Below, piece by piece: positions 3,592-54,171 of a DNA stretch of 54,674 nucleotides. Numbering within the stretch: position 1 is the stretch's first letter; every line of letters begins with the position of its first letter. The notes under the pieces are model-generated. The model was not told where the DNA came from, searched no databases, and worked only from the letters and a program-made list of their open reading frames with translations. Both the position numbers and the translations under genes were made by a program. Source of the stretch: an uncultured virus (IMG/VR IMGVR_UViG_3300027851_000013) (lineage: Duplodnaviria; Heunggongvirae; Uroviricota; Caudoviricetes); the IMG/VR virus record IMGVR_UViG_3300027851_000013; one strand, written 5' to 3'.

Positions 3592-3607
3592 AACCCTGGT
3601 CATAGTA
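3592..3607 (+). promoter_or_regulatory. repeated motif ACCCTGNYCATANTA, copy 1 (putative phage promoter)
   Basis: AACCCTGGTCATAGTA, intergenic upstream of Thg1-like gene. Confidence 0.7.
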
Positions 3608-3635
3608 ATTGGCAGCTGATTTAAAGGATTGACCG

Positions 3636-4409
3636 ATGACTCAAAAAGATTCTCTTGGCGACCGAATGAAGTCCTACGAAGCAGTTGTGGACTATACCCT
3701 GCCTCCTCGTCTTCCTGTGATTCTGCGTGTGGATGGTAAAGCCTTTCACTCGTACACACGAGGACTAAAGAGACCGTGGGATCCCTCTCTCGTAGAGGTG
3801 ATGAATACTACTGCCATTAAGCTGTGTGAGGATATCCAAGGGGCTCAGATCGCTTACGTCCAAAGTGACGAGATTTCTATCCTGGTACATGGGTACAAGA
3901 CATTCAACTCTCAGCCGTACTTCAACGGCCGAGTTCAGAAGACCTGCTCCGTTGTTGCTTCCATTGCTGCGGCTACATTCACCTCTTGGTCGTGGACGCT
4001 CTTTGATAAGGAATCTGTGCCTAACAAGGCATCACTGATTCGACCCGCCTATTTCGACTGTCGTGCCTTCGTTCTTCCCGAAGCTGACGTCTGCAACTAC
4101 TTCTTGTGGCGACAGCAAGACGCCGTCCGCAACAGCGTGCAGTCTCTTGCGCGTTCCTTGTACTCTCACAAAGAGTGCAACAACAAGAACGGTTCCGAGC
4201 TACAGGAGATGTGCTTTCAGAAGGGCCAGAACTGGAACGACCTGCCCGTGCAGCAGAAGCGGGGAAGGTGTGTACTGAGAGAAACTTACCCCGTTGAAGG
4301 CTCAACTGGAGTTGTCCTCCGAAGCCGTTGGACTGTGGATGAAAACATTCCTACATTCTCTCAGGACAGGGATTACATCAACAGGTTCCTGGCGTTGGAG
4401 GAAGAATGA
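3636..4409 (+). CDS. thg1: tRNA(His) guanylyltransferase Thg1-like protein (3'-5' polymerase)
   Basis: RVDGKAFHSYT, YVQSDEISI, FDCR, YFLWRQQDAVRNS family motifs. Confidence 0.93.
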   Translation: MTQKDSLGDRMKSYEAVVDYTLPPRLPVILRVDGKAFHSYTRGLKRPWDPSLVEVMNTTAIKLCEDIQGAQIAYVQSDEISILVHGYKTFNSQPYFNGRVQKTCSVVASIAAATFTSWSWTLFDKESVPNKASLIRPAYFDCRAFVLPEADVCNYFLWRQQDAVRNSVQSLARSLYSHKECNNKNGSELQEMCFQKGQNWNDLPVQQKRGRCVLRETYPVEGSTGVVLRSRWTVDENIPTFSQDRDYINRFLALEEE

Positions 4410-4600
4410 GTCAGCCTGATACTTCTAACAGCGCACCCTTAGATGCTGACGAGCTTGTTGCCCTTAAGGCTTTGCTTACCGAGGCAGGTCTTTCCTTTAT
4501 GCATGCTCGTGAAGGATCCATTGCAGACGTGCTTAGAGGTCATGGCGAGAAGGCCCTTGCGGGCTTGAACAAGTTGCGAGCCCGGCTTGCTTCTTGTTGA
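4406..4600 (+). CDS. hypothetical protein
   Basis: ATGA overlap, GGAGG RBS. Confidence 0.55.
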   Translation: MSQPDTSNSAPLDADELVALKALLTEAGLSFMHAREGSIADVLRGHGEKALAGLNKLRARLASC

Positions 4601-4621
4601 CTACAACAGAGAGAAAGAATC

Positions 4622-4915
4622 ATGTCAAACGACAATATAATTCTTGCTTCCATTGGGTGGTGCATCTCCACTCTGGGAGCCGTGAGTATCGCTCTTCAAG
4701 TCATGGGTTACTATCCAGACAAGGTAGCCATCTATTCTTGGGTAGCCAACGTATTCATGCTTTTGTTTGGAGTCTGGGCCTTTCTTAGAGAGTTTCACAT
4801 TGCCAAACGCCACACCCAAAGAACTGCAGACAAGTACATGAAACTCTATAGGGAAAACCGAGAGTTGCGCTCTCTCCTTCGAAAAGCAGAGACGACAGGA
4901 TCAGACCATGAGTAA
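4622..4915 (+). CDS. two-TM membrane protein with basic C-terminal tail
   Basis: Two hydrophobic segments followed by charged helix. Confidence 0.6.
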   Translation: MSNDNIILASIGWCISTLGAVSIALQVMGYYPDKVAIYSWVANVFMLLFGVWAFLREFHIAKRHTQRTADKYMKLYRENRELRSLLRKAETTGSDHE

Positions 4916-5117
4916 GTGTCGGTGCGGGTGGGAAGGAGAAGGCCAACACCCTTGTCACGGCAAGGGATATCAGTGTAAGTCTCCTGCGCTCCCCCGTTTT
5001 GTCGCCACTTCTGGCGGTCTATCTGGAAGTCAGATCAAGACAGCTGCCTATCAAACTTGGGCATGCGATTCTTGTTGGGAAGAGTTCAGGGAATTTGCAA
5101 AGAAAGAGGGTGAGTGA
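4908..5117 (+). CDS. small Cys-rich (zinc-binding) protein
   Basis: CRC, HPCH..C, CDSC. Confidence 0.6.
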   Translation: MSKCRCGWEGEGQHPCHGKGYQCKSPALPRFVATSGGLSGSQIKTAAYQTWACDSCWEEFREFAKKEGE

Positions 5118-5704
5118 TGGGCTGGTGGTCTTCAGCAGTAATGGGAGGGGATCCCTCTTTCGATTGGTTGATTGATTTTGAGAAGGCTTTAGGCCTGGAC
5201 CCGGATCACACGAGAGACGAGGCTGAAAACAAGGTTATCGCAAAACAACTGGAGCAGAAGGAATCTGACCTGGTCAGTATTCTTGGTCTTCCCTCTGAAT
5301 ACAAGGACGAGCAGGAGTATAGAGTAGGTTGGCAAGTGCTTGGATACCTCATGTTGAGGTGTGGTGCCTTTTTTACTAAAGAAACGAGAGACCGCATAAT
5401 CGATGCAGCGATGAAGGACGATTCCTCTTTGTTTCTTCGTCCGCAGCTTCGAAAACTCTTCATGCTAGATCTGATAGAGAAGGTGGCGAATCACTCTCCT
5501 GGGCAGTGCACTGAGCTGGCAGGAGACATGGACGACTTTTCAGACAGCACCCCTTCGGTCAGAAGCATTTATACCGCGCTCGTTAAAGAGCGGGATGACG
5601 TTGTGGATCGCATGATGAGCGTGGCTCAGTTTCATGGTTACACGTTCGACGCAGATAAGCTGCGCAGGATGCTTCAAAAGGTAGCCCCTTCCAAAGAAAG
5701 CTGA
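5117..5704 (+). CDS. hypothetical protein (DUF4259-like N-terminus)
   Basis: MGWW...D..FDWL N-terminal pattern; TGATG coupling. Confidence 0.6.
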   Translation: MGWWSSAVMGGDPSFDWLIDFEKALGLDPDHTRDEAENKVIAKQLEQKESDLVSILGLPSEYKDEQEYRVGWQVLGYLMLRCGAFFTKETRDRIIDAAMKDDSSLFLRPQLRKLFMLDLIEKVANHSPGQCTELAGDMDDFSDSTPSVRSIYTALVKERDDVVDRMMSVAQFHGYTFDADKLRRMLQKVAPSKES

Positions 5705-5707
5705 TTT

Positions 5708-7459
5708 ATGTTCAAGTCTGGGGATAAGGCCCTTCTTCCCACTGGAGAGATTGCTGATGTTGTAGAGGCTGACCCCTCAACAACTGTAGTGGTCACAACT
5801 TTGGGGTCCTTCGAGGAGAGCGAACTTCAACAGGGGCACCCTTCGGTTATTGGTGACCGAACCAGGAAGCGAGTTGACATCAAGGAGATCTTGTCTGACC
5901 CTGACTTGCGTGAAGACCTGATGGTCTCCACCATTCAGGCGGTCCAATCCGTTGGAGGAGTTGACACAACAAAGGATCAAGCTCTTGACGCCTACAAGGC
6001 GGCACTGGACGCGCAGGACGCCTTATCTTCTCTTCTTGACAAACTAGAGATGGATTATGCGGGCCACTGGAGAAGTGGGAGAGACAGTAGCGATCATTTT
6101 CTACCTATGGTACTACAGAATCTTTACTGCCACCAATTTTTAGTGCCCAGAGAACAGCTTGATGAACTGTGTCACGCTCTGCGCGAAAAGAAGAGTCTAG
6201 GCCGTTGGGTGCCTGTAGCGAAGTGCAACATGGCCACTCTAGGAGGTGGTTGTGGTTACTGTGGGGCAGAGAAGTTCGAGCTTGAAACGGACGGTCTGTC
6301 CGTACGATTTAGTGGCGAAAGGTGTCCTCTTCCAGACGGGTTTGAGCCCAACGAGTGGGAGCTTAATGTTCCTAGCGGAAAAATAGCTGTAGCGAATGAC
6401 TTGCGCAACTGGTTTCCTCTTTCGTTTGGTTCAGAAGACATCCCCAGTGTTAACTCTGTCATTGGGCGCAGAGCAGTAGCACAAGCTTACGCACAGGTGG
6501 GCCTTTCTCATGCTTCTGTTGGAAACACCTGTCCTTCTGTGTTCAAGCTGAGCGACTCTTCCTTCAAGATTTCCTGTGGACCTTCGGAGGAGGTCTGGAA
6601 CGGTGAGGAATGGGTAGACAGAGAAGAACCCATTGAGCCGGAAGGTGAGGAAGTAGCCTTTATTTGTACGGACCTGTGGTGGTATTCTTTGTGCGACTTG
6701 GAAGAGCTGGAAAGGCGCTTTGCCAGGTTTGGAAAAGAAGAAGACAAAGATATCACAGTGATTCAGGTTAAACCTGGGGTATACAAATTCCTACACAACG
6801 ACAGCATTGATGAAAGCGCTGATGAGGTGGTGTTCTCTACCTTTGAGTGGGTTAGAGACCCGGACCCAGTCAGGGATTTCGCAGGAGAGTATGACAGCCT
6901 AACTGTAAACCCTCATGCGTTTGTGCAAGCTAAGGTAAAGAGTTGGCCCACTCTTTACGGACACACTGACAGGACTACGAAGACTGTAATCTCGTGGTCT
7001 GAGATGACGGAAGAGCAGCGACATCAATCCTGGGCTTCGGTAGCTGACCACGTGTTTCTCGTGATAGGTTCTGGGCAAGAGTGGCACACAAAAGGCTTTC
7101 CTGTTACGTATGTAGACTCTTCAATTCCGGATATCGAGCCTCCAGAGTTTCGGTTTCAACATGGTTGGTACCCATTTTCAGAACCCTACGGAGGAATCCA
7201 CAAACAAAATTTGGATCCGTCTTGGGCTAAGTTGGCCTTCCGAGTATTGGAGTCCATCATTTCTTTTGGAATGTCAGTAAGTACCATCCGAGAAGAGAAG
7301 CAAGTGCGCAGTCTTATGCGTCAAGCGGCCCAAAGGTACCTAGAACTAGCTGCTATACATCCTTCTGAGGCAGACACGAACTATGTCAAGTGGCTGTCTC
7401 AAGAGGAAAGAGTGAAGGGGTGGGTAGCTCGCTTTAGCTTTCAAAGGAAACACACATGA
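5708..7459 (+). CDS. large multidomain hypothetical protein
   Basis: 583-aa ORF; CGYCG, VPSGKIAVANDLR, ICTDLWWY segments. Confidence 0.8.
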   Translation: MFKSGDKALLPTGEIADVVEADPSTTVVVTTLGSFEESELQQGHPSVIGDRTRKRVDIKEILSDPDLREDLMVSTIQAVQSVGGVDTTKDQALDAYKAALDAQDALSSLLDKLEMDYAGHWRSGRDSSDHFLPMVLQNLYCHQFLVPREQLDELCHALREKKSLGRWVPVAKCNMATLGGGCGYCGAEKFELETDGLSVRFSGERCPLPDGFEPNEWELNVPSGKIAVANDLRNWFPLSFGSEDIPSVNSVIGRRAVAQAYAQVGLSHASVGNTCPSVFKLSDSSFKISCGPSEEVWNGEEWVDREEPIEPEGEEVAFICTDLWWYSLCDLEELERRFARFGKEEDKDITVIQVKPGVYKFLHNDSIDESADEVVFSTFEWVRDPDPVRDFAGEYDSLTVNPHAFVQAKVKSWPTLYGHTDRTTKTVISWSEMTEEQRHQSWASVADHVFLVIGSGQEWHTKGFPVTYVDSSIPDIEPPEFRFQHGWYPFSEPYGGIHKQNLDPSWAKLAFRVLESIISFGMSVSTIREEKQVRSLMRQAAQRYLELAAIHPSEADTNYVKWLSQEERVKGWVARFSFQRKHT

Positions 7460-8418
7460 CTTGGTACGCCTTTGCTGCAAAGAAGAAACCTATTGTCACT
7501 AGTCCAGATATTGTTCTCTTGTTCTTGCAAAAGAAAGCATCCTCGTGGGACCAGACAGGTCGTGCAGATGACAAGGTATACGTAGGATCTTTTGGAGAAG
7601 GGGGCGTACGGCGCATTCTTCAGAGCAAGAAAGAGATAGTGCTTTCTGGGGACGTTTTGGTGTTAGACCAAGCTATTGAAGTAGACGAGAATACAAGAGC
7701 CCTTGTAACTCCCTTCCCTAGCTTCTCGGCTCTGCGGGATTCTGTTCTCTGGGCCGAGCAAGAAGATTGCGACTCACCTTGCCTCAAAGAAGCTATCGAT
7801 CTGTGGGCATATGCCTCACAGTACAAGATATCCTGCAACGACCTTATCTCGGCGTCTCTTGCTCTTGAGTCGATAGCCAAAGGACACTCCTCCATAAAAT
7901 TCGTGGAGGTAGATGGAGTCACTCTATTCTTAGGTCCCTACGAAGATCTAAAAGATCTCTGGTATACTTTTGGGTTTTTGGGTGTTCTTGGGACAGTGTA
8001 TGAGAAGTATGCTAACCCTGGCCATACTAACGTGAAAGATTCCTCCTCCTCCACTAAGGATACCTCTATGGAACAATCTCCCACTTCTGAAGAAAAGGTG
8101 TTTGAAGCAGTGAAGACCGACCCGATTCAGTTTGCACTCGAACACTCCTTTGGCATCTCTTTGCTGTTTGGTGGTGACCCTCTTGTAGTTTTGCGCACAA
8201 AGGAAGCCTCGACCAAGGATTACGACAGGATTTTGAGTCTTCCGTACAAGTTCTTTTGTGCGTTTGAGACCAGTCTCTATGTTCTTCCGTTTGTTCACGG
8301 TGGGACTATAGAGTACTCTTTCTTTGTTCACACAAGTGACATTAAGGAAGACCCAGAGTTCTTGACTACAGCGGAATCGTGGATCTCTGGGTTTCTAGAG
8401 GGAACGGAAAAGATCTGA
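7456..8418 (+). CDS. hypothetical protein, probable two-gene fusion with internal start at 8068
   Basis: ATGA overlap; internal repeat motif plus AAGGA RBS before in-frame ATG 8068. Confidence 0.65.
   Translation: MTWYAFAAKKKPIVTSPDIVLLFLQKKASSWDQTGRADDKVYVGSFGEGGVRRILQSKKEIVLSGDVLVLDQAIEVDENTRALVTPFPSFSALRDSVLWAEQEDCDSPCLKEAIDLWAYASQYKISCNDLISASLALESIAKGHSSIKFVEVDGVTLFLGPYEDLKDLWYTFGFLGVLGTVYEKYANPGHTNVKDSSSSTKDTSMEQSPTSEEKVFEAVKTDPIQFALEHSFGISLLFGGDPLVVLRTKEASTKDYDRILSLPYKFFCAFETSLYVLPFVHGGTIEYSFFVHTSDIKEDPEFLTTAESWISGFLEGTEKI
8014..8029 (+). promoter_or_regulatory. repeated motif copy 2 (inside CDS)
   Basis: AACCCTGGCCATACTA. Confidence 0.6.
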
Positions 8419-8420
8419 TT

Positions 8421-14928: not shown

Positions 14929-14964
14929 GCAGGGGAAATTCCTGACGCCTTACTCTTATCTAGA

Positions 14965-15303
14965 GTGGTGAAACGTTTCGCTCCAGACCTTGACGACTTG
15001 CCTACTCTGGAGATTCCCGATCTCAGAAGAAAAGCTCAATCTTTACTACACCTTCTTGTCTCTGCTGACATTACCCCAGAAGAGTACGTAGAGAAGTTGG
15101 ACATCATTCAGGGTGTGCTCAAAGAGGTGTATCAAGAAGCGGTGACTTTGGCCTCAATACAGCATGAGTGGAAATATTCTGGCATAAAAGAAAAGATGGA
15201 ACGAGCCACTCAACGTCCTCCGCCAGATCCTGCTCCCGATGAAACAATTACGGTACAGGACTTAGATATAGACTGGAGTGACTTTGACGACATAAAGGAT
15301 TAG
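14965..15303 (+). CDS. hypothetical protein
   Basis: ORF in tiling; acidic tail. Confidence 0.6.
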   Translation: MVKRFAPDLDDLPTLEIPDLRRKAQSLLHLLVSADITPEEYVEKLDIIQGVLKEVYQEAVTLASIQHEWKYSGIKEKMERATQRPPPDPAPDETITVQDLDIDWSDFDDIKD

Positions 15304-16299: not shown

Positions 16300-16923
16300 C
16301 TACTTGGAAGCACTTCTTTTTCTTTCTCTGTACCTCTTGTTTCTTTCTCTTGACTTCTCTCTTTCCCTTTCTCTCTGCCCCTCGCTCATTTTATTTCTCC
16401 AATTTCTCTTGTATGTAGAGTCCCTCTCAATTTCATCCTTAGTTCTAGACATTCTCCTACTTCGTGCGTCCTCGTTTACACATGTCTTACACAACTTGCC
16501 CGCAGTTTTTTCATGTCCCCTGTAACAGGTAGAAAATAATATATCTTTGTCCTCCACCTTATGAGGAACAATCCCTGCACTGGCTTCTGCGTACACTGAG
16601 GCTCTTTCCAGCCAAGCCTTGTCGTCTATCCCTGCAAGCAGAGTATTACATCTTCTACATAATAGTCCACGAATAACGCCATCATCATGTCTGTGGTCTA
16701 TCATAGTAGGCTCTCTGTCACACAACGCACACGTTCCTTTTTGTTTTTGTAGAAGATCCTCCCACTGCTTTACGCCTATCCCATAAGTAACAGCACGCGC
16801 CCTCCATCCTGAAGTCGGTACACATTCACAACACCATTTATGGTTTGCCGCTCTAGGAGAAAATTCTGTATCGCACAAATGGCACACCCTTTTTTCGTGG
16901 AAGTTGTGCTTTCCGCCACTCAT
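16300..16923 (-). CDS. endonuclease VII-like (HNH/beta-beta-alpha) nuclease, possible homing endonuclease
   Basis: YGI..WEDLLQKQKGTCALC..IDHRH..G.IRGLLCRRCN; TGATG coupling to amidase stop gives start 16923. Confidence 0.85.
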   Translation of the reverse strand: MSGGKHNFHEKRVCHLCDTEFSPRAANHKWCCECVPTSGWRARAVTYGIGVKQWEDLLQKQKGTCALCDREPTMIDHRHDDGVIRGLLCRRCNTLLAGIDDKAWLERASVYAEASAGIVPHKVEDKDILFSTCYRGHEKTAGKLCKTCVNEDARSRRMSRTKDEIERDSTYKRNWRNKMSEGQREREREKSRERNKRYRERKRSASK

Positions 16924-17636
16924 CAGTACCCTCCAACTCCATTGGGGTCCCACTGAATCGGTAGAGGTTTTCCATCGCGACGCGTCTCCTGCGGGCGAGT
17001 CTTCAGACCAAGAACCGGAACCGCGTAATCAATGACTACGGCCTTCCACAGGGCCTCTCCTGGGTCGGACGGCTTGTCTCCATTTGTTTGCCTGTGTGCG
17101 TACGCCCATTCAATTGGCGCACCCATGGCCCTAGCTTCCTCCACCACTCTTTTTGTCAGGTCTCGGTAGCATTTAATAGCTACCTCTGTCAATGGGGTGG
17201 GTTCCTGTCTTTTCCAGGTAGTACGAATATCTTCACGTACCGGCGTTGTTGGGTCATCTAGTATGCCACTAAAGTGACCCTCAAATTCCAGTCCTAGTGT
17301 GTCTTCGTTGAACTCATTTCCGTGATACACATACCAGGATAGTGGACAAGGTAGAACAGCCGTTCCATCCAGGAACCCTACTCCATGACACGGAATACTG
17401 AGGGCTCGCCTGTACTTAGAGTCAGGATCCTTCTTGTTAGGAGTTCCGAATACACAGGCTGTCTGATGGAAGCATATGCCTGTAATCAGGCTCATGTCTC
17501 TCTCAAACACCTTTCGGTTCTTTCCCTTTTTGCACAAGTTATAGGTTACTTTTTTTCCTCCTCGTTGTACTACCTTCGGAGGAATGGGGTTTTTCTGCTG
17601 ATTTCTCAGGTCGATGAATCTGGTCATGACCTTCAT
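16923..17636 (-). CDS. N-acetylmuramoyl-L-alanine amidase (Amidase_2-like, putative endolysin)
   Basis: ICFHQTA, YHGNEFNEDTLGLEFEG, AHRQ..KPSDPG: Zn ligands H/H/D and catalytic E pattern. Confidence 0.8.
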   Translation of the reverse strand: MKVMTRFIDLRNQQKNPIPPKVVQRGGKKVTYNLCKKGKNRKVFERDMSLITGICFHQTACVFGTPNKKDPDSKYRRALSIPCHGVGFLDGTAVLPCPLSWYVYHGNEFNEDTLGLEFEGHFSGILDDPTTPVREDIRTTWKRQEPTPLTEVAIKCYRDLTKRVVEEARAMGAPIEWAYAHRQTNGDKPSDPGEALWKAVVIDYAVPVLGLKTRPQETRRDGKPLPIQWDPNGVGGY

Positions 17637-18616: not shown

Positions 18617-18631
18617 ACCCTGGCCATAGTA
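18616..18631 (+). promoter_or_regulatory. repeated motif copy 3
   Basis: AACCCTGGCCATAGTA followed by hairpin GCTGTC-GTGA-GACGGC. Confidence 0.7.
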
Positions 18632-18695: not shown

Positions 18696-18977
18696 ATGAA
18701 GGAAGACGCAGTACAAAATCCTTTACGTGATTTTGTGGACAAAATCACTCGCAGGGATTCAGATACGGTGGAGAAGGTTCTTCTACACATCTTGGACACC
18801 TCTCGACGAAGGTGGAACGAAAAAGCCTCTGACCTTCTTCATCAAATCAGGGATGCTAGGGGGATGGACCCTGAGACCCTGGAGTCGTTAAAGAAGGAGT
18901 ACAGGGACGCGTTCAACCACGTTCATCGCCTCTCTCAAATGCGCTATGGAGTGACCCGGCGCAAAATCCGTTCTTGA
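18696..18977 (+). CDS. hypothetical protein
   Basis: AAGGA RBS. Confidence 0.6.
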   Translation: MKEDAVQNPLRDFVDKITRRDSDTVEKVLLHILDTSRRRWNEKASDLLHQIRDARGMDPETLESLKKEYRDAFNHVHRLSQMRYGVTRRKIRS

Positions 18978-22490: not shown

Positions 22491-22530
22491 GGCAGCAGTC
22501 TCCTTGTAAAGAGCACCCTAGAGGTGCTAC

Positions 22531-23097
22531 ATGCGATTGGTTGTCATAGAATCCCCTTATGCTGGGCTTGTGGACAGAAATGTAGATTACGCACGAGAGT
22601 GTGTTCGGGATTGCTTGCGTAGAGGAGAGTCACCCTACGCAAGCCATCTGTTCTTCACTCAACCAGGAGTTCTGAATGATGACATTCCTGAAGAGCGTAC
22701 ATTAGGAATTGACGCGGGGTTGGCGTGGGCAGCCAAAGCTGACGCCTCGGTTCTCTACATGGACCATGGTATGAGCAGGGGAATGGTCTATGGCATCCGC
22801 AACGCGGTGAAAAGCGGACGAAAAATAGAGATCCGCAGACTCTACAGTGACGTAAAAGAGCTGGACCACGCGGCGGTCGAAGATGTCGTTCGCGAGGCTC
22901 TAAAGGAAAAGCAAGAAGCTTTTCTTCCCAGCCTAGACAAGGTTTCTCCATTTCTTCGAGATAAGGTAGAAGAAGTAATAACCAACTTGACACAACGTCC
23001 CCTTTCTGTGTTTGACATTGCCTCCTATGAGAAGGCTGCCACGGCCAACGTAGGAGAAGTGCCTGACGTAAATCCTGAAAAAGAACCCATCTCTTGA
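22531..23097 (+). CDS. nucleoside deoxyribosyltransferase-fold protein (DUF4406/DUF7768-like)
   Basis: VVIESPYAG..RN..YAR, PYASHLFFTQ, LNDDIPEER..G, SRGM. Confidence 0.75.
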   Translation: MRLVVIESPYAGLVDRNVDYARECVRDCLRRGESPYASHLFFTQPGVLNDDIPEERTLGIDAGLAWAAKADASVLYMDHGMSRGMVYGIRNAVKSGRKIEIRRLYSDVKELDHAAVEDVVREALKEKQEAFLPSLDKVSPFLRDKVEEVITNLTQRPLSVFDIASYEKAATANVGEVPDVNPEKEPIS

Positions 23098-23104: not shown

Positions 23105-23129
23105 AACCCTGCTCATATTAGTGAGCAGG
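23105..23129 (+). promoter_or_regulatory. repeated motif copy 4 within 8-bp hairpin overlapping RBS
   Basis: AACCCTGCTCATATTA; CCTGCTCA-TATTAG-TGAGCAGG overlaps AGGAGG. Confidence 0.75.
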
Positions 23130-23139: not shown

Positions 23140-23871
23140 ATGGTTGCCATCTTTGCCACCAAGTCTAGTAATACAAAAATTTCTGGTGAGTCCGCAGTAT
23201 CGGCCACCTATGCTGCTACTTCTGTTTCTTGTCCTTCCACTTGCAATCTCCGTGGTTCCGGCTGTTACGCAGAATCAGGCAGGGTTGGCGTTCACGTAGC
23301 TGCCCTCAATACTTCTGCTCCCGAAGGAATCCGTCCAGAGGCAATAGCCAGAAAAGAAGCAGGCTTCATTCGTGCTGCGTTCGGGAAGCGCCCCATTCCT
23401 CAGGATGGAGCACGCGGCGGACGGGACCTTCGTCTCCACGTATCTGGAGACTGTCGAACCAACAAGGCAGCTGAGATTCTTGGAAAAGCTGCTCTCCACT
23501 GGAAGAGCCGAGGCGGAGGAGCAGTGTGGACGTACACACATGCTTGGGCTACGGTTCGACGTAAGTCGTGGGGCAAGGGAGTTTCTGTCCTCGCTTCGAT
23601 GGAAGACCCCAAGTTGGCAGCAAAGGCTCGGCGTCAGGGGTATGCTCCTGCCCTGGTAGTGCAGGAACACCCGAGCACCAAGGCCTTTACTCTTCCTGGG
23701 TCTACAGTTCGGTGGATTCCTTGTGTAGAGCAAACTCATGGCATTCCTTGTGCGGATTGTCGTCTTTGTATGGATGCAGACGGTCTGCGTCAACGTAACA
23801 TGGGCATTGCGTTTGCAGCTCACGGTCCTACACGAAAGATTCGAAAGCACCTTCAGGTGCTTTCGAGCTGA
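23140..23871 (+). CDS. Gp88-like Cys-rich protein (radical SAM-like fold suspected)
   Basis: N.K, SCPSTC..GCYA, LRLHVSGD, WTYTH, PC..C..CRLC. Confidence 0.7.
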   Translation: MVAIFATKSSNTKISGESAVSATYAATSVSCPSTCNLRGSGCYAESGRVGVHVAALNTSAPEGIRPEAIARKEAGFIRAAFGKRPIPQDGARGGRDLRLHVSGDCRTNKAAEILGKAALHWKSRGGGAVWTYTHAWATVRRKSWGKGVSVLASMEDPKLAAKARRQGYAPALVVQEHPSTKAFTLPGSTVRWIPCVEQTHGIPCADCRLCMDADGLRQRNMGIAFAAHGPTRKIRKHLQVLSS

Positions 23872-30393: not shown

Positions 30394-30558
30394 ATGCTGC
30401 CTGCACACATCGTGTCCCAGATTTTGGAACGAGAGCGTCAAACCCGAGACAAGCTCTTCGAGCACCAACCTGTGGTAGAAATGCCCCTTGCCCCTCCGCC
30501 TGGTCCAGTGGAAACTACAGAGGAATCTCACAGAGGCGTAGTCATTATAGATCTGTAA
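30394..30558 (+). CDS. 54-aa protein MLPAHIVSQILERER...RGVVIIDL (not in ORF track)
   Basis: AGGAGG RBS; better supported than the overlapping 30378..30584 frame. Confidence 0.75.
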   Translation: MLPAHIVSQILERERQTRDKLFEHQPVVEMPLAPPPGPVETTEESHRGVVIIDL

Positions 30559-30576
30559 ATAGAAATATTGGTAACA

Positions 30577-31137: not shown

Positions 31138-31878
31138 ATGCGTAAAGACATTGCAAAAGTTATCGTAGAGCGTCCTCGTTATGGCGGCGGCGGTAAGTAC
31201 CAACTTCGTCAAGACAGAAGAAAAGGAAAAGACCCGCTTCAGTGGGAGTCTCTTCCTAAACAAGAATCCCTTAAGGCAGTAAACATTCGTGGGTATAACG
31301 GAAAATACCTCAATGATTACCTTGCTCCCATCAAAGGGTTTCTCAGCAAAAACGTAGGCCGTCCCTGGGATAAGGTTAATTCTGAAATCAGAAAGCACCT
31401 CAAACCCCGTAGTACCATGCACCGTCATGTTCTCGAACATATCTACAACGGATTCGTAGAGCTTCGTCCCATGTTCAAGGAAGATGGGACGGTCCTCCGA
31501 GATGATGGTCGTCCGTTTTATGATGGAAACTGGTACGTAGACAGACAGGGTATTCTTCGAGCGTACAAGGAAAAGAAGCGTAAGAAGGTCAAACCCAAAG
31601 AAGAGATCCTGGTAATCAATGATTACGAGGAGTACAGGAAGATTGACGGAATCTGGTATTACGTCAGGTTCGTACACGCCAATCCCAAAGACTTCAACGT
31701 ATTTGACGTCATCTTCAACAGGACGCTTCCTTTCATTCCATGGCACCTTAGAGGCAAGCATGGGCCACCTAAACACGATGGCGTCCCCATATTTCATCCC
31801 GATAAGGTGAGAGTAGCGGTGGAGAAGAAGCAGCTTTCTAAGAAGCAGCTAAAGGACTTGGGCCTCAACAAACCCTGA
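31138..31878 (+). CDS. conserved basic hypothetical protein
   Basis: AGGAG RBS; MRKDIAKVIVERPR, LNDYLAP..FL...VGRPWDKV.SEI, KKQLSKKQL. Confidence 0.82.
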   Translation: MRKDIAKVIVERPRYGGGGKYQLRQDRRKGKDPLQWESLPKQESLKAVNIRGYNGKYLNDYLAPIKGFLSKNVGRPWDKVNSEIRKHLKPRSTMHRHVLEHIYNGFVELRPMFKEDGTVLRDDGRPFYDGNWYVDRQGILRAYKEKKRKKVKPKEEILVINDYEEYRKIDGIWYYVRFVHANPKDFNVFDVIFNRTLPFIPWHLRGKHGPPKHDGVPIFHPDKVRVAVEKKQLSKKQLKDLGLNKP

Positions 31879-31886
31879 CCATAATA
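31871..31886 (+). promoter_or_regulatory. repeated motif copy 5
   Basis: AACCCTGACCATAATA overlapping stop codon. Confidence 0.6.
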
Positions 31887-31921
31887 GAAAAGGGCCACCT
31901 AAATCTAGGTGGCCCTTTTCT
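31886..31921 (+). terminator. intrinsic terminator, possibly bidirectional
   Basis: Perfect 16-bp inverted repeat AGAAAAGGGCCACCTA-AATC-TAGGTGGCCCTTTTCT. Confidence 0.8.
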
Positions 31922-35584: not shown

Positions 35585-35600
35585 TACCCTGCTCATACTA
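35585..35600 (+). promoter_or_regulatory. repeated motif copy 6
   Basis: TACCCTGCTCATACTA, intergenic. Confidence 0.7.
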
Positions 35601-35669
35601 AGGACTGTGCCTCCTCGACAACCTCATGCTTCTCTTTAATGAGAGGCTCCAGAACAAAACCGCCGAACG

Positions 35670-35882
35670 ATGAAGCCTGAAGATACCTCCGAAGAAAGCA
35701 ACGACTCTTACGATCTCTGGTTGTCCGCTAATTCAGAAGAAGTAGCAAAGCATGTAGGGAAGGTAGTTGCTGTTCATCCTATCCGAGGAATCGTTGCAAG
35801 CACCTCGTCTATTAAGGACACTACCGCCGAGGTGACCCGTATGGGCCTTTTTGACGAGGTAGTGATTCATGTTGTTTCCTGA
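35670..35882 (+). CDS. small protein, DUF5678-like
   Basis: WL..N..E...H.GK.VAV....IVAS. Confidence 0.55.
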   Translation: MKPEDTSEESNDSYDLWLSANSEEVAKHVGKVVAVHPIRGIVASTSSIKDTTAEVTRMGLFDEVVIHVVS

Positions 35883-38184: not shown

Positions 38185-38207
38185 AACCCTGTCCATACTA
38201 GACAGGG
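38185..38207 (+). promoter_or_regulatory. repeated motif copy 7 within hairpin next to RBS
   Basis: AACCCTGTCCATACTA; CCCTGTC-CATACTA-GACAGGG. Confidence 0.75.
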
Positions 38208-38219: not shown

Positions 38220-38474
38220 ATGGCTCTTTTAGGAATACGAAGTTCCGTTTTGCTGACCACAGACGAAATGTCTCAGGATCAGTTTCTAGAATTTCGTAAT
38301 GGATGGATTCGGTATGAGGCCCGAAAGCTTCGCCGAGACGGAATCGAATCGACACTCGCACTGCGCACTGCGGAAGAAGAGTTTGAATTCCTTCGCAAGT
38401 CTGGATTCAAGGAATCCAACGCAACGGTTCTACGCAATCGGGAAATCAGAAAGTCTCTTAGAGAGAGCTTCTGA
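38220..38474 (+). CDS. hypothetical protein
   Basis: AGGAGGT RBS. Confidence 0.65.
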   Translation: MALLGIRSSVLLTTDEMSQDQFLEFRNGWIRYEARKLRRDGIESTLALRTAEEEFEFLRKSGFKESNATVLRNREIRKSLRESF

Positions 38475-43560: not shown

Positions 43561-43576
43561 AACCCTGTTCATACTA
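43561..43576 (+). promoter_or_regulatory. repeated motif copy 8 upstream of rIIA
   Basis: AACCCTGTTCATACTA. Confidence 0.72.
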
Positions 43577-43638: not shown

Positions 43639-45819
43639 ATGAAATTGCCTTCTACGGCGGCTGCCGTTCAGACGGATGGGTCATTCGATTCTTCCGACTT
43701 TCAAATTGATGTCAATCAGCACGCCTTCAACATCTTGTCCAGTGGTCTGTACTCGGACAAGTATCTGGCCATTGTACGTGAGCTTTGCTGCAATGCTTGG
43801 GATGCTCACGTTGCAGCCGGAACTACGGACAAGCAGTTCGAGTTGTTTCTTCCCAACAGCCTTTCTCCCGTTTTCAAGATTCGTGATTACGGAACAGGTC
43901 TGTCTGAGCAAGAAATTCTTGATGTGTACCGCGTATACTTTCGTAGCACGAAGCAACAATCCAACGAAATGATTGGTTGCTTCGGTCTTGGAAGTAAGAC
44001 TCCCTACGCCTACACCCAAAAATTCACAGTCATCTCCTACCACAATGGCACGAAGTACCATTTTAGTGCCATCATTGGAGACACGGGTCTTCCTCGCCTC
44101 GTCAAGATGGCAGAGATGGAGACTTCCGAGCCGAACGGAATGGAGATTTCTTTCTCCGTGGACCAAGGAGACTTTTGGTCTTTTCGTAACGCTGCAGAGA
44201 AGGCTCTTCGTCCTTTCACCCTCAAGCCTATTGTCAAGGGCGTTCACAAGTTTGAACCCCTGACTTATGACAATCCGATCCTTTCAGGAAAGGGTTGGTC
44301 CGTTCTTCGGAACGAAGCAACTAAGCTTGCTGTGATGGGAAACGTAGAGTATCCCGTTTCCGAGCAGCGAGGATTTTCTCCCAACGCCAAGTACATTCTT
44401 GGCTTAGGTATTGTTTTTGACATGCCTCTAGGATCCTTCCACATGACTCCGAGCCGTGAGTCTATCAAGTGGAGCGATTTCTCCATTCGTAACATCAATG
44501 ATAGGCTAGAGGAAATCTACGACGAGGCGTGCAAGACTCTCTCCACACAGATTTCTGCTGCCACTACTCTTTGGGACGCGAGAGTACTAGCAAACAGCTT
44601 GGTTCATTCCACTGCTCTCCGAAAGCTCCGTGTTTCCGTAGACTGGAGGGGCCAGGCTCTTTCCAGTGAAATTCCCATTCGAGACATCAAGGGGCTGAGG
44701 GTTCAGAAGATCACGGCCACCGTCAAGAAGAGATTGACGGGCCTGGGAAACCACTCTGCTTCCTTCAACATGGTGGACACCATCCTTGCTCGTGATACCA
44801 AGTTTTATCTTGGTGATTTTCCTGGAGCAGACTCTCGTGTAGGAAATCTCGTAAGAGATAAGTTTGATAGCCAGCAATACTGCTACCTGATTAAGGCCGA
44901 AACGCCAGAAGCACTCCAAGAATTTACTCAGCTCCTTGGGTTGGACTCCTCCGCCATTTGTCTGGCTTCTTCGGTACCTAAGCGAGATCACGGCGGAGGC
45001 GGGGGACACACCTCCAGCCTTTCTGGAGTTCGCGAAAAGGTGTTCAAACTCGTTCCTTCTAGTGCTTCTGTGAGGGATGAGTACTGGCAGCCCACCGAGG
45101 TAGACTTCGACGAATCCGATCTAGGGGTATACGTAGAGATCAACAGGTGGGCACCTGTTAATACCTATGTTGCTTCCTATGACCATCCCAAACAACTTGT
45201 TTCTCTGATGTCATCTCTGAGCAAGTTGGGTGCAGATATTCCGGATGGAGGACTCATTGGAGTCAAGACTGCTTATGTCGGCAAGATGAATAGGCACCCT
45301 AATTGGGTGCACATTGATTCTTTCGTCAGAGAGCAGCTGTTCAAGGTCTGGGAGTCGTCTGACAGGTTTAGAGTAGCTTACGAGTTCTTTCACCCTGACA
45401 ATGAGCATGATTACCACAAGGTAGTCATGATTAGGGACTTCGTAGAGAAGGCAAAGAAGAAGAACTTGCTGAAGTCTGATTCTTTCCTGGTGAAATTCTA
45501 TGATGTATTCTCTCCTTATTTTAGTCTTAAGGCTCAGGCATACTCGTTTCACACGCTAGCAGAGCAGTACATGCACCGTTCTGTTGGAGAAGAACACCAT
45601 CCCATGAGTCTTGTTCTTCCTCACAGGAAAAAGGGAACGTCGTACGCCCAAAGAGTGTGGGATAAATACCCTCTTCTTCACATTTTGCTTTCTGCGAATG
45701 ACTCCGCCTTTGCTGCGCAACCGTACACCAGGTATTCCAGTCTTGACGCCTTGAAGTACAAGACTATCTGCTCTTACATCAAAGAAATCGACGAGTCGAC
45801 TGTAAAGACTCCTTCCTGA
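43639..45819 (+). CDS. rIIA: rIIA-like protein (N-terminal GHKL ATPase domain)
   Basis: LSSGLYSDK..IVRELCCNAWDAH, IRDYGTGLS, STK..SN..IGCFGLGSKTPYAY, PSRESI; adjacent to rIIB. Confidence 0.9.
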   Translation: MKLPSTAAAVQTDGSFDSSDFQIDVNQHAFNILSSGLYSDKYLAIVRELCCNAWDAHVAAGTTDKQFELFLPNSLSPVFKIRDYGTGLSEQEILDVYRVYFRSTKQQSNEMIGCFGLGSKTPYAYTQKFTVISYHNGTKYHFSAIIGDTGLPRLVKMAEMETSEPNGMEISFSVDQGDFWSFRNAAEKALRPFTLKPIVKGVHKFEPLTYDNPILSGKGWSVLRNEATKLAVMGNVEYPVSEQRGFSPNAKYILGLGIVFDMPLGSFHMTPSRESIKWSDFSIRNINDRLEEIYDEACKTLSTQISAATTLWDARVLANSLVHSTALRKLRVSVDWRGQALSSEIPIRDIKGLRVQKITATVKKRLTGLGNHSASFNMVDTILARDTKFYLGDFPGADSRVGNLVRDKFDSQQYCYLIKAETPEALQEFTQLLGLDSSAICLASSVPKRDHGGGGGHTSSLSGVREKVFKLVPSSASVRDEYWQPTEVDFDESDLGVYVEINRWAPVNTYVASYDHPKQLVSLMSSLSKLGADIPDGGLIGVKTAYVGKMNRHPNWVHIDSFVREQLFKVWESSDRFRVAYEFFHPDNEHDYHKVVMIRDFVEKAKKKNLLKSDSFLVKFYDVFSPYFSLKAQAYSFHTLAEQYMHRSVGEEHHPMSLVLPHRKKGTSYAQRVWDKYPLLHILLSANDSAFAAQPYTRYSSLDALKYKTICSYIKEIDESTVKTPS

Positions 45820-45829: not shown

Positions 45830-47011
45830 ATGGCTAAGCAAATCGGGTTTTTGTACGTCGGAAATCAGTTGACTCTTGTTCTTCGGGGTCATCCATACGA
45901 TGTTGATCCTCAGCACCCCAAGTTTCACGAAATCGTCGCTACCATGAAGCGTCCGGAGAATGAGACTGACGCTCAGGAAGAGTTTCGCTGCGAGAAGTTG
46001 CTTTCCCTAGTGAGAGCAGACCATTCCGATCTGCGAGCCGTTGCGGCTGAGGTTGGATTTAACGACATTCAGGTCGATCATGGTGTTGTTACCGTGAAGG
46101 GAAAGGCGCTCCACAATTCTCTTACTTCACGCATCGTGGAGCTTAAGAAAAGGGGTCTTCCGTTCGAGCCTCTGGTCCGGTTTCTGGTAAACCTGGAGAA
46201 GAACCCGAGTGAGGCAAGTAAGGAGGCTCTCTTCGACTTCTTGGAAAAGGGAAGATTCCCTCTCACAGAAGACGGTTGCTTTCTGGGGTACAAAGGAGTC
46301 AAGAAGGGCAGGCTCAAGCGAGCTGATGGCACCACCTATGAGACTCTTGTAGACTGTCACTCTGGCAGGTTCGACATGGCTCCTGGAAATAGCCACTCGA
46401 TGCCCTGGAGTGAGGTGGACGACAACCGTAACCAAGCATGCGGCGCTGGTTTTCACGTAGGAACCATCGAGCACGCACGAGGTTTCGGCGCAGTCATGAT
46501 TGTCGTCAAGGTCAATCCTAAGGACTGCGTGAGCGTTCCCCGGTACGACACCACCAAGCTGAGGTGTTGTGCTTACGAGGTCATCAATGTTTACTCAGAT
46601 AAGGACCGCGCGAAGGAGTTCGTAAAGCCTGTCTACTCCACCGAAGAGGTGCAAGAGGAAGCTTTCGAGGAGGCGGAGCAGGAGTATGTCTTGGCTACGG
46701 ATATGCCGGAAACAAGGCGTGCTCAGCTTGAGGCCATGGGTCGAGACGACCTTTGCAGGCTTGGTGCCTCTGAAGGTATCTTCTTGTCCACCAACGAAGC
46801 ACGTTGGCTAGGAAAGGCGCTTGTGCTCGAAGCGCTGATGAAGGGCAAACTTCCCCTGGACCTCATGTCGGCCTCCCAGGTGGCTGAGCTGGCTGCACGA
46901 AGAAAGCTCTATTCTACGGCGACTAACGCATCGAAACGGGGTGTAGAGAATCTCAAGAAGGAGATTCTGGAGGACCACGAGAAGCGCAATGCTCCTATCA
47001 AAGAGGAGTGA
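45830..47011 (+). CDS. rIIB: rIIB-like protein
   Basis: FL.NL..NPS, LFDFL..PLTEDGCFLGYK, VDDNRNQACGAGFHVG, VKVNPKDCVSVP, KLRCCAYEV. Confidence 0.9.
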   Translation: MAKQIGFLYVGNQLTLVLRGHPYDVDPQHPKFHEIVATMKRPENETDAQEEFRCEKLLSLVRADHSDLRAVAAEVGFNDIQVDHGVVTVKGKALHNSLTSRIVELKKRGLPFEPLVRFLVNLEKNPSEASKEALFDFLEKGRFPLTEDGCFLGYKGVKKGRLKRADGTTYETLVDCHSGRFDMAPGNSHSMPWSEVDDNRNQACGAGFHVGTIEHARGFGAVMIVVKVNPKDCVSVPRYDTTKLRCCAYEVINVYSDKDRAKEFVKPVYSTEEVQEEAFEEAEQEYVLATDMPETRRAQLEAMGRDDLCRLGASEGIFLSTNEARWLGKALVLEALMKGKLPLDLMSASQVAELAARRKLYSTATNASKRGVENLKKEILEDHEKRNAPIKEE

Positions 47012-49919: not shown

Positions 49920-49945
49920 ATTATAGAACAGTGTAAAGAAGTCGC

Positions 49946-50641: not shown

Positions 50642-50649
50642 AGTAGTTT

Positions 50650-51491: not shown

Positions 51492-51546
51492 TGTTAAAAG
51501 ACCTTGACGCCAACGTTTCACTCTATAGCAAGCATAGGAGTCCTCA

Positions 51547-51843
51547 ATGAAGGTCACCCACAAAGGATTTTGCTGCGACCCAGAAGGATATATCAATGTC
51601 GCCAAGCGTGGAGAGACTATCGAAATCATCGATAAGGATGTTAGTCTCTCACTAAAAACACTTGTCAGCGATACGGCAGAAACCGCGTTAGGTTATGCAG
51701 GAGAGATGTGTGTCCAACAAGATCTTCTAATAATAGCGCTTGCTCAAGGTGACGCACACAGAGCGGGAGAGGCTCTTACTAAACTACTTCTGGCTAGGCG
51801 GAAGTACGACAACGCAATTATTTCCTCCAGTAAGAAGGGTTGA
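51547..51843 (+). CDS. hypothetical protein with Phd/YefM-like N-terminus
   Basis: AGGAG RBS; MKVTHKGFCCDPEGYINVAKRGETIEI. Confidence 0.55.
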   Translation: MKVTHKGFCCDPEGYINVAKRGETIEIIDKDVSLSLKTLVSDTAETALGYAGEMCVQQDLLIIALAQGDAHRAGEALTKLLLARRKYDNAIISSSKKG

Positions 51844-51858
51844 ACCCTGCCCATAGTA
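51843..51858 (+). promoter_or_regulatory. repeated motif copy 9
   Basis: AACCCTGCCCATAGTA followed by CGAGGAA-TTGT-TTCCTCG hairpin. Confidence 0.72.
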
Positions 51859-51901
51859 ATAGAAACGAGGAATTGTTTCCTCGCCGAAAGGAATAATTTC
51901 C

Positions 51902-52483
51902 ATGGGACACTACGTAGAAATCTCTTCCCTCCCCTCTTCCATTCAAGCCGCCCTCAAAGAAGCTGGGTACAACCGCAAGGACATTCAGGTTAACACGGCA
52001 GAAACGGTGTGTCCACGTCCCCCTAGCGCGCAAGGAAAGCGAGGCTTTACGGCGGTATGTGTCCTGGCAGATGACAGTCAGGAATACAAGATGACGTGGG
52101 GATCTTGGGGAGGCAGCAACATGTTCGTCAAGACCATTGACGATGTGCACGAAAATGTGGACATTCCAGAGAACGTGGCTTTCGTCATGGGTACATCGTC
52201 CAGTCCTGGGTATCCGGGATATGCGTACATTTACGTTCATCCAAAGAACATGAATCCAAGTCTTCTCCCTTCTGAGGGGTCCGTGTCGGAACGAGAAGCC
52301 AAGATTCTCGCTATCTTCCGTAGCCTGAAATCTGCCTATCGGAAGGAATACCTGGACGGGATGAAGGCATCCGACGAAGAGATTACCTCTCTCGTTTCTC
52401 GCGGGTACCTCAGTCGAAACAAGGCTGGGGCCACCGCTATCACCACCCAAGGCCGAAATGCCTCAGCAAAGACGTATTACTGA
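51902..52483 (+). CDS. hypothetical protein with winged-helix-like C-terminus
   Basis: AAGGA RBS; GSWGG.N; L...GYL..NKAGA..IT..GRN. Confidence 0.7.
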   Translation: MGHYVEISSLPSSIQAALKEAGYNRKDIQVNTAETVCPRPPSAQGKRGFTAVCVLADDSQEYKMTWGSWGGSNMFVKTIDDVHENVDIPENVAFVMGTSSSPGYPGYAYIYVHPKNMNPSLLPSEGSVSEREAKILAIFRSLKSAYRKEYLDGMKASDEEITSLVSRGYLSRNKAGATAITTQGRNASAKTYY

Positions 52484-53079
52484 TGCACAAATATCTTCTC
52501 CTCTTTCTAGCGGGATGCGCGCTAGATCTTTCTGCACTACAACCAGAGGATTCTGAACCCTCTCTTGACTCTGGAATTTTTGACTCCTCTTTCGACACTT
52601 TTCGAGATGTTCTCATAGAGACGTCTACGGAAGAAGACGCTGGTCCTGACGCATACCTAGAAGATGCCGACCTTGAAGACGCCGGCCTTGAAGATTCCGA
52701 TTCGGGCTTTGACGCAGGTCTGGACTCCGAAGTAGATTCTGGAACTGATTCGGGAATCGACTCAGGAATCGACTCAGGAACGGATGCAGGAAGAGACTCC
52801 GGTTTTGACGCTGGAGTGGACTCAGGAAGGGATTCTGGAGTCGATTCAGGGTCTAGTTGCCCCTGCGCCCCTCCGCTGACTTGTTGTGGCGGGAGGTGTG
52901 TTGACATCCAGACAGACGAACTCCATTGTGGTGCGTGTAATTCCGCCTGCCAAGCAAACAGAGAATGTCGTAGCGGAATGTGCATGTGTGGGAGTTCTCT
53001 GTGCCAACAAGAGTACTGCTCTTGTACATCTTCCCTCATGTGTGAGGGTGCACACCCACTGTGTCTTCCGGGTACCTGA
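52483..53079 (+). CDS. lipoprotein with Asp-Ser-Gly repeat stalk and myxobacterial-type Cys-rich domain
   Basis: Lipobox LAGC; DSG/DAG repeats; CCGGRCVDIQTDELHCGACNSAC. Confidence 0.8.
   Translation: MHKYLLLFLAGCALDLSALQPEDSEPSLDSGIFDSSFDTFRDVLIETSTEEDAGPDAYLEDADLEDAGLEDSDSGFDAGLDSEVDSGTDSGIDSGIDSGTDAGRDSGFDAGVDSGRDSGVDSGSSCPCAPPLTCCGGRCVDIQTDELHCGACNSACQANRECRSGMCMCGSSLCQQEYCSCTSSLMCEGAHPLCLPGT
52672..52855 (+). repeat. low-complexity 12-bp-period repeats encoding D(S/A)Gx
   Basis: For example GACTCAGGAATC GACTCAGGAACG. Confidence 0.7.
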
Positions 53080-53080
53080 C

Positions 53081-53347
53081 ATGAGACTTGATTTCAGAAA
53101 ATGGTCCGAATTCATGTCTCTTCCAGTGTGCCCTCTATGCCAGAGCAGGTCTTGCTCTCGCATTGGAAGCTGTGACCCTCACGCACAAATCGACAGAGCC
53201 ATTGCAGTGTGTGCCATGGCTCACAAACACTTCACTCCTCAAGAACTTTTTCTCTCCGGATCTTTTGCTGGAATGAGCGAACAGCAGTTTTATTTCGCAC
53301 TAAAGGCAGGGGAAATCCTCTCAACCCTAGACGAGGAGGAGACATGA
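53081..53347 (+). CDS. small Cys-rich protein
   Basis: CPLC..C..C; ATGA overlap downstream. Confidence 0.55.
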   Translation: MRLDFRKWSEFMSLPVCPLCQSRSCSRIGSCDPHAQIDRAIAVCAMAHKHFTPQELFLSGSFAGMSEQQFYFALKAGEILSTLDEEET

Positions 53348-53661
53348 ACGACGGCCCCATCTCAGTGCTGCTGACAAGCAGGAGTAAGGGAGACGAAACG
53401 CCTAGATTCGAGGGACTTCTCTTTTCCAAAGGCAACAAGCTGGCTCGCGTGAGGAATGCCGGAACAGGGGGCATGTGCACCTTCGACTGGATTGATCCCT
53501 ACAATAAAAAATGGGCAGAGGATAACTTTCTTCCCTTGATGGTAAAGTATGCTATACTGGACTATCCTGAGTTTGAGGATCTCTTTCGCTGTCACCCCTA
53601 TGAGGCTCTTTCTCTGCTGATTCTTGCTTTTGTAGACAAGAAGCAAGCAAAGGGTGCATGA
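53344..53661 (+). CDS. phage hypothetical protein
   Basis: GAGGAG RBS; ET..F...L...G......N.GTGG. Confidence 0.7.
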   Translation: MNDGPISVLLTSRSKGDETPRFEGLLFSKGNKLARVRNAGTGGMCTFDWIDPYNKKWAEDNFLPLMVKYAILDYPEFEDLFRCHPYEALSLLILAFVDKKQAKGA

Positions 53662-53836
53662 CAGAAATCTTCCAGTGCCCAGGAAGACAGCAGAGGAATG
53701 GGCACTAGATGCGGCAAAAGCGGAAAACTTTCCGTATGTTATCTGGTGGATCATGAACAGAGGGTACATACCTCTACCTAAGGGAGAAAGGCCCTCTTGG
53801 CTCTTTTCCGTTGAGGTAAAGGAAATCCTGCCCTAG
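53654..53836 (+). CDS. hypothetical protein
   Basis: Overlap tiling. Confidence 0.5.
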   Translation: MHDRNLPVPRKTAEEWALDAAKAENFPYVIWWIMNRGYIPLPKGERPSWLFSVEVKEILP

Positions 53837-53849
53837 AAAATAAAGAGAT

Positions 53850-54101
53850 ATGGATTGGCGCAGCCCACTTGATGAATTCACCCTTCGCTTTCTCATTTCG
53901 CAGTTGACTGCGGATAGGGAGCATTACCTTCGTATGGCCAAGGAAGTGAAAACCACCTTGGAAGACGGAGCGGGCGAAAACTTCATGATCAGGGCTGAAG
54001 AATGTGGAAGAATCGTCCACCAGATGAAGAGACAACTGGACAAGTTGATTTCCGTTCCGCCTCCTCCGCCTCAGGACCCACGTGGTCCACGATGGCCTTG
54101 A
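53850..54101 (+). CDS. hypothetical protein
   Basis: Tiling; Pro-rich tail. Confidence 0.55.
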   Translation: MDWRSPLDEFTLRFLISQLTADREHYLRMAKEVKTTLEDGAGENFMIRAEECGRIVHQMKRQLDKLISVPPPPPQDPRGPRWP

Positions 54102-54155
54102 CTTTTCGCAAAATCGTCTATCTTAGAACACACGCCCAGACTACAAATGGGGCCG

Positions 54156-54171
54156 AACCCTGGCCATAGTA
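54156..54171 (+). promoter_or_regulatory. repeated motif copy 10
   Basis: AACCCTGGCCATAGTA followed by GACGGCGA-TAT-TCGCTGTC hairpin. Confidence 0.72.

Follow-up and report, generated by a model that had tools for sequence, protein, structure and literature searches.

A repeated one-strand motif in the window

The DNA analyzed here, hereafter the window, is a stretch of 54,674 nucleotides (nt) from an uncultured virus of the Caudoviricetes (IMG/VR record IMGVR_UViG_3300027851_000013), and the element in question is a short motif, termed class 1, that recurs along it and is very probably a promoter. The window consists of small phage genes arrayed on one strand, among them Thg1, RNase H, NADAR, Nudix, RNA ligase and rIIA/rIIB. 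No tRNA was found in it, and a megablast search of positions 1–25000 against cultured phages gave no match. Exact searching for ACCCTGNYCATANTA returned ten matches, all on the + strand, at 3593, 8015, 18617, 23106, 31872, 35586, 38186, 43562, 51844 and 54157. The original prediction had reported these same ten sites, with every start listed one base too low, and had put the chance expectation below 0.01 copies; 100 shuffles gave 0.00. When up to two mismatches were tolerated, only two extra matches appeared, both on the minus strand (chance mean 1.55). The base preceding the motif is A in 9/10 copies, giving the consensus AACCCTG-NY-CATANTA.

The coding strand downstream of the copies is + in all ten cases, and nine copies stand at gene boundaries, as had been predicted. 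The first (3593..3607), a candidate promoter with a predicted start at about 3614, heads a Thg1-like gene at 3636, whose homologue is not motif-headed in any of three relatives. The copy at 8015..8029 lies within the open reading frame (ORF) 7456–8418 and is either an internal promoter or an unexplained copy. The copy at 18617..18631 precedes a gene at 18696 (homologue motif-headed in 1/2 relatives), and that at 23106..23120 lies 19 nt 5' of the ATG at 23140 (DUF7227), with a Shine–Dalgarno sequence between (motif-headed in 2/2). The copy at 31872..31886 overlaps the stop of ORF 31138–31878 and precedes 31937, and that at 35586..35600 precedes 35670. The remaining four are the copies at 38186..38200, 19 nt 5' of the ATG at 38220; at 43562..43576, heading rIIA-rIIB; at 51844..51858, preceding ORF 51902–52483; and at 54157..54171, preceding a gene at about 54250. 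Their homologues are motif-headed in 3/3, 3/3, 2/2 and 3/3 relatives, respectively.

A strict script found no perfect inverted repeat of at least 7 bp within 100 nt upstream of any of the ten sites. A strong inverted repeat with a T-rich tail lies directly 3' of the 31872 site (31890–31912), overlapping the predicted start, and could be a terminator of the upstream gene or an attenuator. At the 35586 site, a related strain (X2) has 38 other letters as the leader in place of 35615–35702, with the motif side retained.

The motif recurs in an uncultured family of large phages

Record G001 is 100% identical to window positions 1–20988, reaches about 112 kb further upstream and contributes ten additional motif sites, with the strand unchanged. 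A motif scan combined with an rIIA search recovered two complete relatives, G002 (388 kb) and G003 (392 kb), and a sigma search added G004 (424 kb, with terminal repeats) and the fragments G005–G010. Comparison of the capsid protein puts PaBG, RSL1, Sauron and Motura closest among cultured phages, at 33–35% identity. On these sequence comparisons, the window belongs to an uncultured family of phages of about 390–420 kb that are distant kin of PaBG, Lu11 and RSL1.

Position-weight scans located 59 class-1 sites in G002, 75 in G003 and 73 in G004, with 0–1 matches in reversed controls. The consensus is genome-specific: cCAACCCTGGcCAtACTA in G002, GAACCCtgccGATAnTA in G003 and AAAgtCCgncGATanTA in G004. 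The upstream block varies between phages (AACCCTG versus AAAGTCCG), and so does the base at −12 (C versus G). The fragment G007 has 20 one-strand motif matches against two control matches. Genes were called by our own script, so that counts at gene boundaries are approximate.

The motif has the properties of a promoter without a −35 element

Class-1 sites share the orientation of their downstream genes in 10/10 cases in the window, 13/13 in G001, 57/59 in G002, 75/75 in G003 and 72/73 in G004. Across the three complete genomes this amounts to 204/207 copies. Among 227 pooled sites, motif position 22 is a purine in 187 (background 0.66, p = 4e-8) and position 21 a pyrimidine in 126, while an ATG begins exactly at position 22 in 13 (p = 4e-5). 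A at −11 and T at −7 are present in all 227, an invariance that was partly imposed by the seed patterns. T occurs at −12 in 2 of the 227 sites, and the window has C there in 10/10, a departure from the housekeeping sigma-70 pattern.

No −35 signal was detected in G002–G004, where no upstream position carries more than 0.3 bit of information. TTGACA with up to two mismatches occurs at 5–11 of 226 sites at any spacer of 14–20, which bears out the original statement that no consistent TTGACA lies upstream. The motif sequence is non-palindromic. A hairpin or cruciform promoter of the N4 type was also considered and was rejected by a permutation test, in which stem length and covariation equaled those of permuted controls in four sets (p 0.06–0.85).

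Placement is conserved to a greater degree than sequence. Homologues of the first gene were found in relatives for 7/10 window sites, and 14/18 of these homologues are motif-headed at 30–65% protein identity. Class-1 sites keep their placement by descent as their sequence changes together, which suggests co-evolution with a trans-acting reader.

Co-orientation, a −10-type box and a start-site signature 7 nt downstream assign the motif to a promoter class, and we hold with high confidence that class 1 is a real promoter. With equal confidence, these sequence features are taken to describe a −35-less promoter with a −10 box, (C/G)ATANTA, preceded by the block AACCCTG at about −21 to −15. The predicted transcription start is about 7 nt after the invariant T, and leaderless messages are predicted at some sites. 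The promoter interpretation put forward in the original prediction is therefore sustained by co-orientation, gene-boundary position, the −11A/−7T geometry, the pyrimidine/purine start signature, the leaderless ATGs and the conserved placement before orthologues.

Class 1 probably occupies the early slot of a three-class program

Class-1 sites occur at 2.7–3.8 per 10 kb in small-gene regions versus about 0.3 in core modules, roughly a tenfold difference between zones that were drawn after seeing the data, which weakens the case for a dedicated early class. Very dense clusters, with one site per 0.3–1 kb before tiny genes, lie at about 360–368 kb in G003 and about 204–222 kb in G002 and look like a host-takeover region. 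Within such a region, G003 encodes a 109-amino-acid (aa) protein (L167:6345-6671, −) with a weak Sigma70_r3/helix-turn-helix match (E 9e-5), a possible additional regulator.

Two further motifs accompany class 1. Class 2 (YTGTAAA) lies at most 120 nt from a start in 28/65, 28/54 and 42/74 occurrences, against 2/27, 9/81 and 10/41 in controls, and often stands 5' of replication and metabolism genes. Class 3 (STTATYTR) does so in 21/45, 17/45 and 22/30 occurrences, against 3/25, 3/41 and 3/17, and is often 5' of structural genes, as well as elsewhere. The window itself carries class-2 motifs on the + strand at 22504..22510 (TTGTAAA, 27 nt 5' of the ATG at 22531), at 30553..30559 (CTGTAAA(T), 15 nt 5' of an ORF at 30568 that the gene caller missed) and at 45800..45806 (30 nt 5' of the rIIB start at 45830). 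A single class-3-like copy, TTATCTA (14956..14962, +), lies 9 nt 5' of the GTG at 14965 and may be due to chance.

Sigma-70 consensus promoters number 0–2 per genome, equal to the reversed-control level. Searches for RNA polymerase subunits found PF00562 in 0/3 records and PF00623 in 0/10 records, three of the ten being complete. Because the family encodes no detectable polymerase, the host core RNA polymerase is expected to transcribe these genomes. Together with sigma-70 promoters at control level, this suggests that class 1 fills the slot that host promoters hold in Lu11. Class 1 is therefore probably the early class of a three-class program, as judged from motif content and gene placement. 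It was not found in the stretches of Lu11, RSL1 and PaBG that were read (88 kb for PaBG). Class 2 has a counterpart in Lu11 and both ordinary phage sigmas have counterparts in PaBG, which indicates that they are older than class 1.

Two ordinary phage sigmas probably match two older motifs

The family encodes two sigma-type proteins of ordinary size. The gp118-like sigma (410–450 aa, 33 homologues) adjoins the SSB gene and is a clear sigma, with E 7e-13 against a bacterial sigma profile. Its region 4 is shortened, and its regions 2.4 and 3.0 are nearly invariant over the 33 homologues. It is syntenic with PaBG gp118, in the order sigma-SSB-RecA, and is not in G001. Compared profile against profile, the family matches PaBG gp118 weakly (probability 2.4, E 0.02), and gene order is the basis for calling the two orthologous.

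The second, gp112-like protein is a 354-aa homologue of PaBG gp112, which PMC7412058 names as a possible sigma, and is present in 7/10 records, including G001. It scores E 0.21 against the bacterial sigma profile, and its predicted fold weakly resembles sigma domain 2 (Foldseek E at least 0.065; VIA Z 7–8). Immediately after region 2 it has a conserved four-cysteine motif (alignment columns ~215–240), a probable and unusual zinc site. As judged from sequence, CTGTAAA is probably the target of the gp112-like sigma, and the late promoters with TTATYTR are probably that of the gp118-like sigma. By parsimony, two old sigmas match two old motifs, and no reader is then left over for class 1.

A giant head-module protein is a third candidate reader

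At the end of the head module, G002, G003 and G004 encode a giant protein of 2,437–2,814 aa, which also occurs in G006; its family comprises 16 clusters. By eye, its layout runs through sigma regions 1.2 and 2.1–2.4, an insert, and then regions 3.2 and 4. When 45 segments along the protein were compared with a 17-sequence bacterial sigma profile, only 481–690 and 781–990 reached E < 0.006. These segments are sigma 2.2–2.4-like and sigma 3.2–4-like, respectively, and are colinear, with E values of 0.0004–0.006; a reversed sigma profile never fell below E 0.066. The giant protein thus scores ahead of the gp112-like protein (E 0.21) but far behind the gp118-like sigma (E 7e-13). With 16 diverse members, the sigma-4 segment reaches a probability of 43–58% (E 1e-4 to 2.4e-4 over 84–96 columns). 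The insert resembles a head protein encoded beside the capsid gene (E 1e-6 to 1e-8).

A class-3 motif lies 709–742 nt 5' of the giant gene, ahead of the operon, in 3/3 genomes. Together with the head-module location and the head-protein-like insert, it gives an indirect indication that the giant protein may be a virion component. Between phages, the giant protein is 27–32% identical versus 48–68% for the gp118-like sigma. It is the most divergent of the three phage-encoded candidate readers, as would suit a motif whose copies change together within each genome. A tblastn search of cultured phages found no match to the giant protein. A predicted complex of the sigma-2-like segment with an E. 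coli beta' clamp fragment scored 0.00, which speaks neither for nor against the assignment. An N-terminal motif recognized by eye is present in 11/108 head-module proteins versus 20/1650 others, but in only one of three giant proteins, and was therefore given no weight. Elsewhere in the head module, G003 encodes a protein with a 2H phosphoesterase domain and a weak Acb1 match (L162:6055-7485, +), possibly a virion-borne anti-defense enzyme.

A number of observations weigh against the giant protein as the reader of class 1. Its gene is not in G001, the examined part of the window's own phage, and none of the patterns tried brought out a clear class-1 motif in the fragments G005, G006 and G008–G010. 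The sigma-like segments were first chosen by eye, and the hhalign probability of the sigma-2 segment is only 2–18% (2–6% with the 16 diverse members). Pfam gave no sigma match for the 16 members scanned, PDB gave no sigma match and Atlas no usable match, and a bacterial sigma hidden Markov model does not pick up the protein. The insert, about 180 aa long, takes the place of region 3.0, which would be expected to recognize the upstream block, and a sigma-4 domain, the better-scoring one, is unneeded at a promoter without a −35 element. In G004, a loose class-1-like match stands 122 nt 5' of the giant gene itself. The sigma call for this protein is accordingly a modest one.

Weighing the candidate readers

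The original prediction had attributed the motif to a phage sigma factor or RNA polymerase, or to a host alternative sigma factor. Its phage-sigma part may hold, though the best candidate is now a third one, the giant protein. Another form of that idea is that an ordinary sigma, gp112-like or gp118-like, is expressed from a weak host-type promoter once the phage has entered and reads class 1 as a middle class. The gp118-like protein is a clear sigma whose shortened region 4 suits a promoter without a −35 element. The gp112-like protein has the weak sigma-2-like fold, is present in G001 and has its gene downstream of a class-1 site in G001, G003 and G004 (not G002), an arrangement that could reflect autoregulation. 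We nevertheless regard this explanation as unlikely: G001 and G003 have almost the same region 2.4 in the gp112-like protein although −12 differs (C in 13/13 versus G in 72/75), and gp118-like regions 2.4 and 3.0 barely vary while the motif does. Moreover, PaBG has both sigmas, and the 88 kb of it that were read showed no class 1; two further conserved classes require readers, and no host-type promoter was found to start such a cascade. A polymerase as reader was not borne out. An undetected virion RNA polymerase of the crAss, P23-45 or N4 kind would suit the giant head-module protein of the complete genomes, such polymerases being very divergent, but there is no polymerase family match, no DxDGD motif conserved across three genomes in the giant protein and no hairpin covariation of the N4-promoter kind, and we consider it highly improbable.

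Somewhat less likely again than an ordinary phage sigma is a host sigma. It could be an alternative sigma of group 2/3 or, if the host is unusual, its primary sigma, possibly helped by an activator; the phages would then differ in motif because their hosts differ. The −11A/−7T geometry is canonical, the G003 form contains GCCGATA, which is sigma-28 −10-like, the window form resembles sigma-S and sigma-G −10 boxes, and relatives use host promoters for the class-1 slot. Against this stand the rarity of T at −12 (2/227) and the lack of host enrichment in two phyla: AACCC-N4-SATANTA occurs in only 59/301 genomes of the phylum of a Myxococcales genome and in 211/301 of a second deltaproteobacterial phylum, both at about control level by eye, and the 15 matches in G013 lie mostly in long open frames. 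The host is hinted to be Myxococcota by a cysteine-rich Stig1/MXAN_6577-like protein at window positions 52483–53079, whose nearest Atlas clusters are mostly from that phylum (score 0.84, below cut-offs). Since this hint is weak, the true host may lie outside the phyla sampled. A loose-motif scan of a genome collection gave scattered matches (best 80 of 121). An archaeal genome, G012, had 22 such matches; the four loci examined each carry the same repeated, transposase-like element, which makes a coincidence likely. The last alternative dispenses with a promoter altogether and makes the motif a protein-binding, RNA-processing or recombination site. Copies inside called genes (1/10 in the window, 6–14 per relative) would fit it; strict co-orientation, the start-site signature, leaderless ATGs at one position and the non-palindromic sequence make it scarcely credible.

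A proposed mechanism

The reading we favor, held at a little below even confidence, is that an injected virion sigma, the giant protein, together with the host core polymerase reads class-1 promoters. From the observed motifs, positions and genes, we infer timing, packaging, injection and the pairing of factors with classes as follows. The giant protein would be made late from the head module and packaged in the virion. It would be injected with the phage DNA and would supply sigma function to the host core polymerase at class-1 promoters, which would switch on accessory genes and the gp112-like sigma. The gp112-like sigma would drive class 2, including the gp118-like sigma gene, and the gp118-like sigma would in turn drive class 3. 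More tentatively still, the packaged sigma might open a private early class at once, with neither a host sigma nor a phage polymerase, its co-evolution with the motif rewriting 60–75 sites per genome.

Phages without a polymerase are expected to begin infection from host-sigma promoters, yet this family seemingly lacks such promoters and has 60–75 rigid private promoters before accessory genes. If the mechanism is correct, it would constitute a third way to begin infection besides the host holoenzyme and an injected polymerase. It would also make early expression independent of the state of the host sigma and provide compact orthogonal promoter–sigma pairs. Regardless of the reader, the analysis maps three promoter classes in a family of uncultured jumbo phages and suggests functions for two unassigned PaBG-type sigmas.

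Other features of the window and its relatives

Amid the plus-strand region of the window, an endonuclease VII-like gene (16300–16953, −) and an adjoining ORF (16923–17636, −) lie on the minus strand, possibly a mobile homing endonuclease. In G002, the major capsid gene (L143:17796 to L144:211) appears as several separate ORFs, with one that is endonuclease-like lying in between, and is probably interrupted by introns.

Comparison with known systems

The closest cultured comparison is with PaBG, Lu11 and RSL1, which PMC7412058 places in the Lupandier group/Mieseafarmvirus. The window family resembles them in a capsid protein that is 33–35% identical, in the gene order sigma-SSB-RecA and in the shared gp112-like second sigma. 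Lu11 also has the motif CTGTAAAT, which matches class 2 and is annotated there as a "putative middle/late promoter". The differences are that Lu11 has GenBank-annotated sigma-70-type promoters, whereas the window family has the class-1 motif instead, and that the giant protein is without a tblastn match in these cultured phages.

Among bacterial sigmas, sigma-28 recognizes a TAAA-type −35 box followed by GCCGATAA. The −10 part of class 1 is similar to the boxes of sigma-28, sigma-S and sigma-G, but class 1 has no −35 box and has in addition an invariant block from about −21 to −17. A sigma-28 promoter does not fit, there being no conserved −35 in G002–G004 and a C at −12 in 10/10 window sites.

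Promoters without a −35 element are known from phage sigmas, as in T4 late promoters (TATAAATA, read by gp55) and with phiEco32 gp36. Class 1 would share with these a single compact box, the host core polymerase and, on the favored reading, a phage-supplied specificity. It differs in its 16-bp bipartite form, which shifts between phages, and in its position in the accessory-gene slot, whereas the known sigmas are made during infection and drive middle or late genes. In jumbo phages that lack an RNA polymerase, phage sigmas steer the host polymerase to phage promoters, as stated in PMC13282480 and PMC7824862.

Virion delivery provides the other half of the comparison. The giant protein would be late-made, packaged and active at the first transcription of the next infection, as virion-delivered transcription proteins are. 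Of these, T4 Alt and the N4 virion RNA polymerase are examples. Others are the phiKZ/AR9 virion RNA polymerase (PMC13282480) and injected polyvalent proteins (PMC7824862). The known systems deliver polymerases or modifying enzymes, whereas the giant protein has a candidate sigma-like region and no polymerase; the beta/beta'-like subunits of phiKZ/AR9 were not found in the window family, which also differs from N4 in having no hairpin promoter. In the literature covered, which omits most subscription papers, no description of the class-1 motif or of a virion-carried sigma was found. Phage sigmas that redirect the host polymerase are thus of a known kind, while the class-1 motif combined with a virion-carried sigma is possibly a new mechanism.

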